18,130 nucleotides of DNA, taken from positions 1 to 18,130 of the IMG/VR virus record IMGVR_UViG_2671180283_000002. The stretch is one strand, 5' to 3'. The translations under genes were made by a program, and so were the position numbers. Within the stretch, counting starts at the first letter, position 1; every line of letters starts with the position of its first letter. This DNA is from a virus (lineage: Duplodnaviria; Heunggongvirae; Uroviricota; Caudoviricetes). Positions 6,681 to 6,746 of this stretch are shown here, one piece after another. The notes beneath the pieces are model-generated. The model was not told where the DNA came from, did not search any database, and saw only the letters and a program-made list of their open reading frames with translations.

Positions 6681-6746
6681 GAAATAGAAATGGAAATAGA
6701 AATAGAAATAGAAATAGAAATAGAAATAGAAATAGAAATAGAAATA
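6681..6746. repeat. Hexanucleotide microsatellite (GAAATA)x11, one variant unit GAAATG
   Basis: Direct count from sequence: 11 tandem 6-bp units from 6681 to 6746, in the intergenic region between the divergent HNH gene and the 617-aa gene. Confidence 0.95.

Follow-up and report, generated by a model that had tools for sequence, protein, structure and literature searches.

A hypervariable hexanucleotide tract in the nin spacer of a lambdoid prophage matches the Escherichia coli O157 typing locus TR1/Vhec4/O157-9/VNTR-9

The DNA analysed here, called the window throughout, is a stretch of 18,130 nucleotides from a Caudoviricetes virus (IMG/VR record IMGVR_UViG_2671180283_000002). Direct reading of positions 6681..6746 gives eleven tandem copies of the hexanucleotide GAAATA, or AAATAG in the register used in the literature, with no strand assigned to the tract. 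The second unit (6687-6692) reads GAAATG and all other units read GAAATA, which bears out the description of eleven perfect or near-perfect tandem hexamers in an earlier note on this sequence. Tandem Repeats Finder delimited the array at 6676-6746 (period 6, 11.8 copies, 95% matches, score 128, consensus AAATAG) and reported no second array of this kind in the 18-kb window. The longest exact period-6 run extends over 54 bp (6693-6746), whereas in 300 dinucleotide-preserving shuffles that served as the chance control it averaged 13 and never exceeded 16, and the tract is thus a real feature far beyond chance.

The tract sits in a divergent, intergenic and AT-rich (34% GC) spacer of 580 bp, with an HNH endonuclease gene on the minus strand to its left and a 590-aa gene on the plus strand to its right. 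Gene context was defined by Pfam matches on the window's own ORFs, which place the tract in the nin region of a lambdoid prophage, within its early rightward operon. Next to an S24-peptidase/HTH repressor gene on the plus strand (13420-14142), the minus strand carries, in order, genes for a Cro-like HTH protein, O, P, NinB, NinE, HNH, NinG, a calcineurin-like phosphatase and the antiterminator Q, the last assigned by Pfam and gene order at 4495-3872 (minus strand). The HNH gene of this operon encodes 188 aa (5915..6481, minus strand; Pfam HNH_3, 4e-11), and PGAP annotation of identical loci places its start at 6481. Of the two starts considered in the earlier note (6481 or 6562, for a distance of about 120-200 bp), the PGAP start leaves the tract 200 bp upstream of the gene. 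An imperfect 20-bp direct repeat (6423-6463, two copies, 80% match) falls within the 5' portion of the HNH gene and recurs in an Escherichia albertii prophage module (positions 883-923 of that sequence, L005); it is probably coincidental coding sequence. About four further 20-bp repeats resembling TCCCTCnTTTTAnGGGAA occur at 12260-12337 inside the gene of replication protein O, and by this location they look like the iterons of a lambdoid replication origin.

Downstream of Q (485-4495, minus strand), we found a 252-aa hypothetical gene and a 616-aa gene, the latter matching by position and size the RefSeq DUF6645 gene of E. coli O157:H7 EC4115, while no stx genes are present downstream of Q in the window. 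The nin module is 98-99% identical in the Stx1-converting phages SH2026Stx1 and AU6Stx1 and in many STEC chromosomes, and in these two phages it is joined to stx1. As the same module occurs with stx1 in the phages and without stx in the window, the tract-bearing module is shuffled among converting and non-converting lambdoid prophages. The left arm of the window (543-6734) is collinear with a prophage remnant of EC4115 at 95-98% identity. The whole 18-kb window is contained in one piece in no complete E. coli genome, with a best coverage of 76%, in keeping with the mosaic make-up of the prophage.

The right neighbour of the tract is a gene of unknown function that lies in the interval between NinE and HNH, oriented opposite to the phage operon (7062..8834, plus strand, PGAP). 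It had been described before as a 617-aa gene starting at 6981, a reading that we would revise, since the PGAP start is a TTG at 7062 behind AGGAGG, and in phage SH2026Stx1 a 1-nt indel upstream of this TTG breaks the frame of the longer version; the gene product therefore probably comprises 590 aa and not 617. The protein has no match in Pfam, PADLOC, NCBIfam or PDB sequences, and it matches PHROG 9230, which is of unknown function. Homologues are found in E. albertii, Salmonella (648-680 aa) and Providencia, and a chromosomal homologue with 71% identity is not accompanied by the tract. An AlphaFold2 model based on a 15-sequence alignment predicts an all-helical protein whose first ~120 residues are unstructured, with very low confidence (mean pLDDT 38). 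A chromosomal homologue from E. albertii lies ~1.3 kb (two genes) downstream of a gene that weakly matches the type III effector family AvrPphF-ORF-2, and an effector-like role of the 590-aa protein is only a guess. Upstream of the gene, a candidate promoter was read by eye at 6933..6961 (plus strand), consisting of TTGACG followed after 15 nt by TGTAAT or after 17 nt by TAATAA. A consensus scan of 6300-7200 returned no sigma-70 consensus sites and likewise missed this candidate, which belongs to a promoter-like block (about 6907-6966) without a single difference among the four aligned sequences, the E. albertii module included. The distance from the tract to the candidate -35 hexamer at 6933 measures 187 bp, close to the roughly 190 bp estimated earlier.

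Repeat unit and left flank both point to a locus that is well known from molecular typing. TR1, as typed with the primers of Noller et al., has the repeat unit AAATAG and the forward primer ACTGCATGATAAGCCTCAGG (PMC2246123), and the CDC/PulseNet forward primer for VNTR-9 is GCGCTGGTTTAGCCATCGCCTTCTTCC (PMC3321953, Table A1). Both sites are found on the plus strand of the window with 0 mismatches, the TR1 site at 6584..6603 and the VNTR-9 site at 6466..6492, where it overlaps the 5' end of the HNH gene, and the Tandem Repeats Finder consensus and period equal the published unit. Because both forward primers match exactly and the unit is the same, we identify the tract, as judged from these sequence matches, with the MLVA locus of E. 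coli O157 named TR1 (Noller 2003), Vhec4 (Lindstedt 2003), O157-9 (Keys 2005) and VNTR-9 (CDC/PulseNet), whose synonymy is given in two papers (PMC3768571, PMC3321953). The earlier suggestion that the tract is the sort of locus that serves as a VNTR marker in E. coli typing turns out to hold literally, and the locus itself is not new, having been a routine E. coli O157 typing marker since 2003. The reverse primers TR1-R and VNTR-9-R, however, have no site in the window, even with up to 3-4 mismatches allowed, which makes the window an IS30-free form and not an allele that the standard assays could type. Reverse primers define the assay and not the repeat; the left arm is shared, as are the 14 bp that follow the tract on its right, indicating that the tract is homologous to the O157:H7 locus.

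The missing reverse sites are explained by what follows these 14 bp. In EC4115, the left flank leads into a tract of nine units, the 14 bp TTAAAACAGACCAC and then directly TGTAGATTCAATTGG, the left end of IS30, whereas the window has the same 14 bp at 6747..6760 and keeps phage sequence beyond 6760. PGAP annotates the EC4115 element as a truncated IS30 (region 6190-6432 of the EC4115 sequence L003), and both reverse primers fall inside it, TR1-R at 6305-6324 and VNTR-9-R at 6402-6432 of that sequence. Beyond IS30, the phage early region is missing from EC4115 and the right-hand gene is lost, an IS30-associated deletion. Searches of 5426 complete E. coli genomes detected the left flank in 519, the IS30-flanked form in 282 and the IS30-free form in about 245, the carriers of the latter including O26, O103, O111, O145 and some O157 strains. 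The O157 strain 180-PT54 (NZ_CP015832.1) carries both forms, at ~1,265,900 and ~1,577,900, with 12 units in the IS30-flanked copy and 11 in the IS30-free prophage copy, so that at least one O157 genome has the tract twice with differing unit numbers. Since both reverse primers lie inside IS30, IS30-free copies such as that of the window would give no product and be scored as null alleles. Null alleles made up 31.7% at this locus among 202 German O157 isolates (PMC3321953), and the primer positions suggest that the IS30-free form may account for part of them. The presence of both forms in one O157 genome further implies that in-silico MLVA should anchor on the right flank too, as a left-only anchor is ambiguous. 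In a literature search that covered few subscription papers, we did not find a link between IS30 and this locus, and the original Noller, Keys and Hyytia-Trees articles may contain it. What the present analysis adds is the anchoring of the reverse primers in IS30 and the IS30-free paralogue, while the rest was already established.

The number of units differs widely among carriers, overall from 3 to 17. Exact counts on fetched sequences gave 3 units in Z1323CEC0008, 9 in EC4115, 11 in both the window and 2014C-3061, and 17 in phage SH2026Stx1. Counts derived from match spans in 60 evenly spaced genomes with the IS30-free form ranged from 3 to at least 15 units (mode 8, 12 size classes, Simpson D 0.89). 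For the IS30-flanked form, the 33 genomes with full-length matches among 60 sampled rows had 5 to 17 units, again by match spans (12 alleles, Simpson D 0.93). All spans in both samples differ by multiples of 6, in line with the changes in 6-bp steps that had been predicted from the sequence. With 12 alleles or size classes in each of the two samples, the proposal of a hypervariable, VNTR-type locus is well supported, and an invariant repeat number, which the earlier note had named as the outcome that would speak against it, is clearly contradicted by the two ranges. These values compare with a published range of 6-23 repeats, 15 alleles and a diversity index of 0.90 at this locus (PMC3321953). 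In serial-passage experiments, Vhec4 gained single units and underwent one point mutation, at a rate of 4.3-4.6e-5 per generation per strain (PMC3777172), and the lone GAAATG unit of the window is the same kind of change as that point mutation. This rate was published under the name Vhec4, and a literature search combining the name O157-9 with mutation rate returned none. When four versions of the spacer were aligned, variation beyond a few bases was confined within E. coli to the tract, which was also by far the largest length difference between species. The E. albertii prophage module, which is 94.5% identical, contains 6.8 copies, all of them perfect.

We considered whether the tract might encode a small minus-strand protein with an (Ile-Ser)n or (Phe-Leu)n dipeptide repeat of strain-dependent length. 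Two minus-strand frames are indeed open across it, one of 60 aa reading (Ile-Ser)n through the tract (6632..6814), which PGAP calls at 11 units or more, and one of 87 aa reading (Phe-Leu)n (6541..6804, by translation), and ORFs have been placed here by PGAP and in the EDL933 annotation. However, TATTTC repeats are free of stop codons in all three minus-strand frames, so that open frames arise here automatically. In the sample of 60, among the rows with a derivable count, the 60-aa ORF was always called by PGAP at 11 units or more and never at 10 or fewer, which marks the call as a length-threshold artefact. The RefSeq 60-aa 'hypothetical protein' across the tract, noted as a side observation, shows neatly how microsatellite length can decide whether an ORF is called. 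Pfam and PHROGs gave no match for either ORF, and by direct reading neither ATG is preceded by a Shine-Dalgarno-like sequence. Moreover, the IS30 junction at 6760/6761 in O157:H7 removes both start codons (6804 and 6814), yet the tract persists. Neither ORF is probably a gene, and a coding function of the tract is scarcely credible.

Another reading, suggested by the earlier note, is that changes in unit number shift promoter-near spacing and thereby tune or switch the expression of the 590-aa gene or the HNH gene. The setting described above, a divergent AT-rich (34% GC) intergenic region with a highly variable copy number, would suit such a role, as would a good -35 hexamer that lies downstream of the tract within a block fully conserved between E. 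coli and E. albertii. The distances speak against it, since 187 bp separate the tract from the candidate -35 and 200 bp separate it from the start of HNH, and it is not placed between a -35 and a -10 element. It is also outside any translated frame, where known switches act, and its 6-bp unit would preserve every reading frame in any case. In lambda, nin genes are transcribed from the upstream early promoter, and the gene order of the window fits the expectation that its minus-strand nin genes are read in the same way. The allele distribution is broad and unimodal without clustering, and the O157:H7 form is equally variable even though its right-hand gene is deleted. We thus consider it very unlikely that the tract acts through promoter spacing, and the regulatory suggestion is unsupported.

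It is also conceivable that the tract acts in a transcript, where its length could modulate stability, processing or protein binding and thereby affect Q or the 590-aa gene. In the transcribed direction, it lies between the early promoter region and Q, and would appear as (UAUUUC)n on the early phage transcript and as (AGAAAU)n on any plus-strand transcript. The distal face of Hfq binds runs of A-R-N triplets, and (AGAAAU)n is such a run, presumably of the distal-face type. Retention of the tract in the diverged E. albertii module would likewise agree with a role in RNA. On the other hand, nothing marks the tract as an RNA element: Rfam gave no match in 6300-7100 at a permissive threshold, a stable structure is not expected from a simple AU-rich repeat, and a terminator scan of 6300-7200 found nothing terminator-like except a weak stem of 5 bp at 6625-6610, which is not part of the tract. 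In addition, the conserved promoter-like block of the plus-strand gene is located downstream of the tract, which would probably leave the tract outside the mRNA of the 590-aa gene, and the literature searched held no experimental hint of such an element. A function at the RNA level is almost certainly not the explanation.

Taken together, these analyses indicate that the tract is very probably a selectively neutral, slippage-prone microsatellite in a non-coding nin spacer. It would be carried by lambdoid prophages circulating among Shiga-toxin-producing E. coli, related pathotypes and E. albertii. When the DNA is replicated, the strands of (AAATAG)n may misalign by whole units and leave descendants longer or shorter by 6 bp each time, and such slippage would place the tract among the most polymorphic sites of the genomes that carry it. 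This high polymorphism led to its adoption as the MLVA locus TR1/Vhec4/O157-9/VNTR-9. The window would represent the uninterrupted form, and O157:H7 a derived form in a prophage remnant with IS30 inserted 14 bp to the right of the tract. That the tract equals the published locus, that it varies by steps of 6 bp and that two flank forms exist is shown by the sequences compared here, and the mutation rate was measured by others. We infer that the tract changes by slipped-strand mispairing and that it lacks a function, and neutrality is read from the absence of signals, together with the O157:H7 copy, which keeps varying after the loss of everything to its right. Two observations speak against neutrality, namely the persistence of perfect units in an E. 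albertii module diverged by ~5.5% and the position of the tract, by gene order, in the early transcript that is read to reach Q. The persistence in E. albertii is compatible with a microsatellite above the slippage threshold, and weak selection for retention fits as well. That the tract is a length-tunable cis element, either in the early PR-to-Q transcript of Stx-type prophages or upstream of the 590-aa gene, is highly improbable. If it were true, slippage would create heritable cell-to-cell differences in Q, in prophage induction and toxin release, or in accessory-gene expression, and retention in the diverged E. albertii module would reflect selection. All functional readings taken together remain unlikely, and we regard neutral slippage as the best account of the locus.

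The likeness to contingency loci deserves comment, as the tract shares with those of Haemophilus, Neisseria and Campylobacter a short repeat, frequent slippage and a location near horizontally acquired genes. Contingency repeats act either within a reading frame, with units whose length is no multiple of 3, or from a position between or adjacent to the -35 and -10 elements. The tract differs in both respects, with a unit of 6 bp, 187-200 bp to the nearest candidate promoter or start codon and no consensus promoter overlapping it, and it remains variable where the neighbouring gene has been deleted. The closest relative is the TR1/VNTR-9 copy of O157:H7 itself, which has the same unit (AAATAG/GAAATA), left flank, 14 bp after the tract, whole-unit polymorphism and diversity of ~0.9, and differs in carrying IS30 after those 14 bp, while the window lacks IS30 and both reverse primer sites. 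Unlike O157:H7, the window retains on its right flank the 590-aa gene and the remainder of a phage early region that appears to be complete. The other hexanucleotide VNTRs of the O157 panel (O157-3/TR5, O157-10/TR2, O157-17/TR3, O157-19/TR7, O157-25/TR4 and O157-37) likewise consist of 6-bp units in a few to ~23 copies (PMC3321953), with O157-10 alleles reaching 43 (PMC3777172). As with the tract, whole units are gained and lost, at roughly 1e-5 to 1e-3 per generation, and these loci serve as neutral epidemiological markers (PMC2246123, PMC3321953, PMC3777172). They have other sequences and occupy other sites, several of them inside chromosomal ORFs or on pO157, whereas the tract resides in the non-coding spacer of a mobile prophage module, and for this reason it is found in only ~10% of complete E. 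coli genomes and sometimes twice in the same genome.
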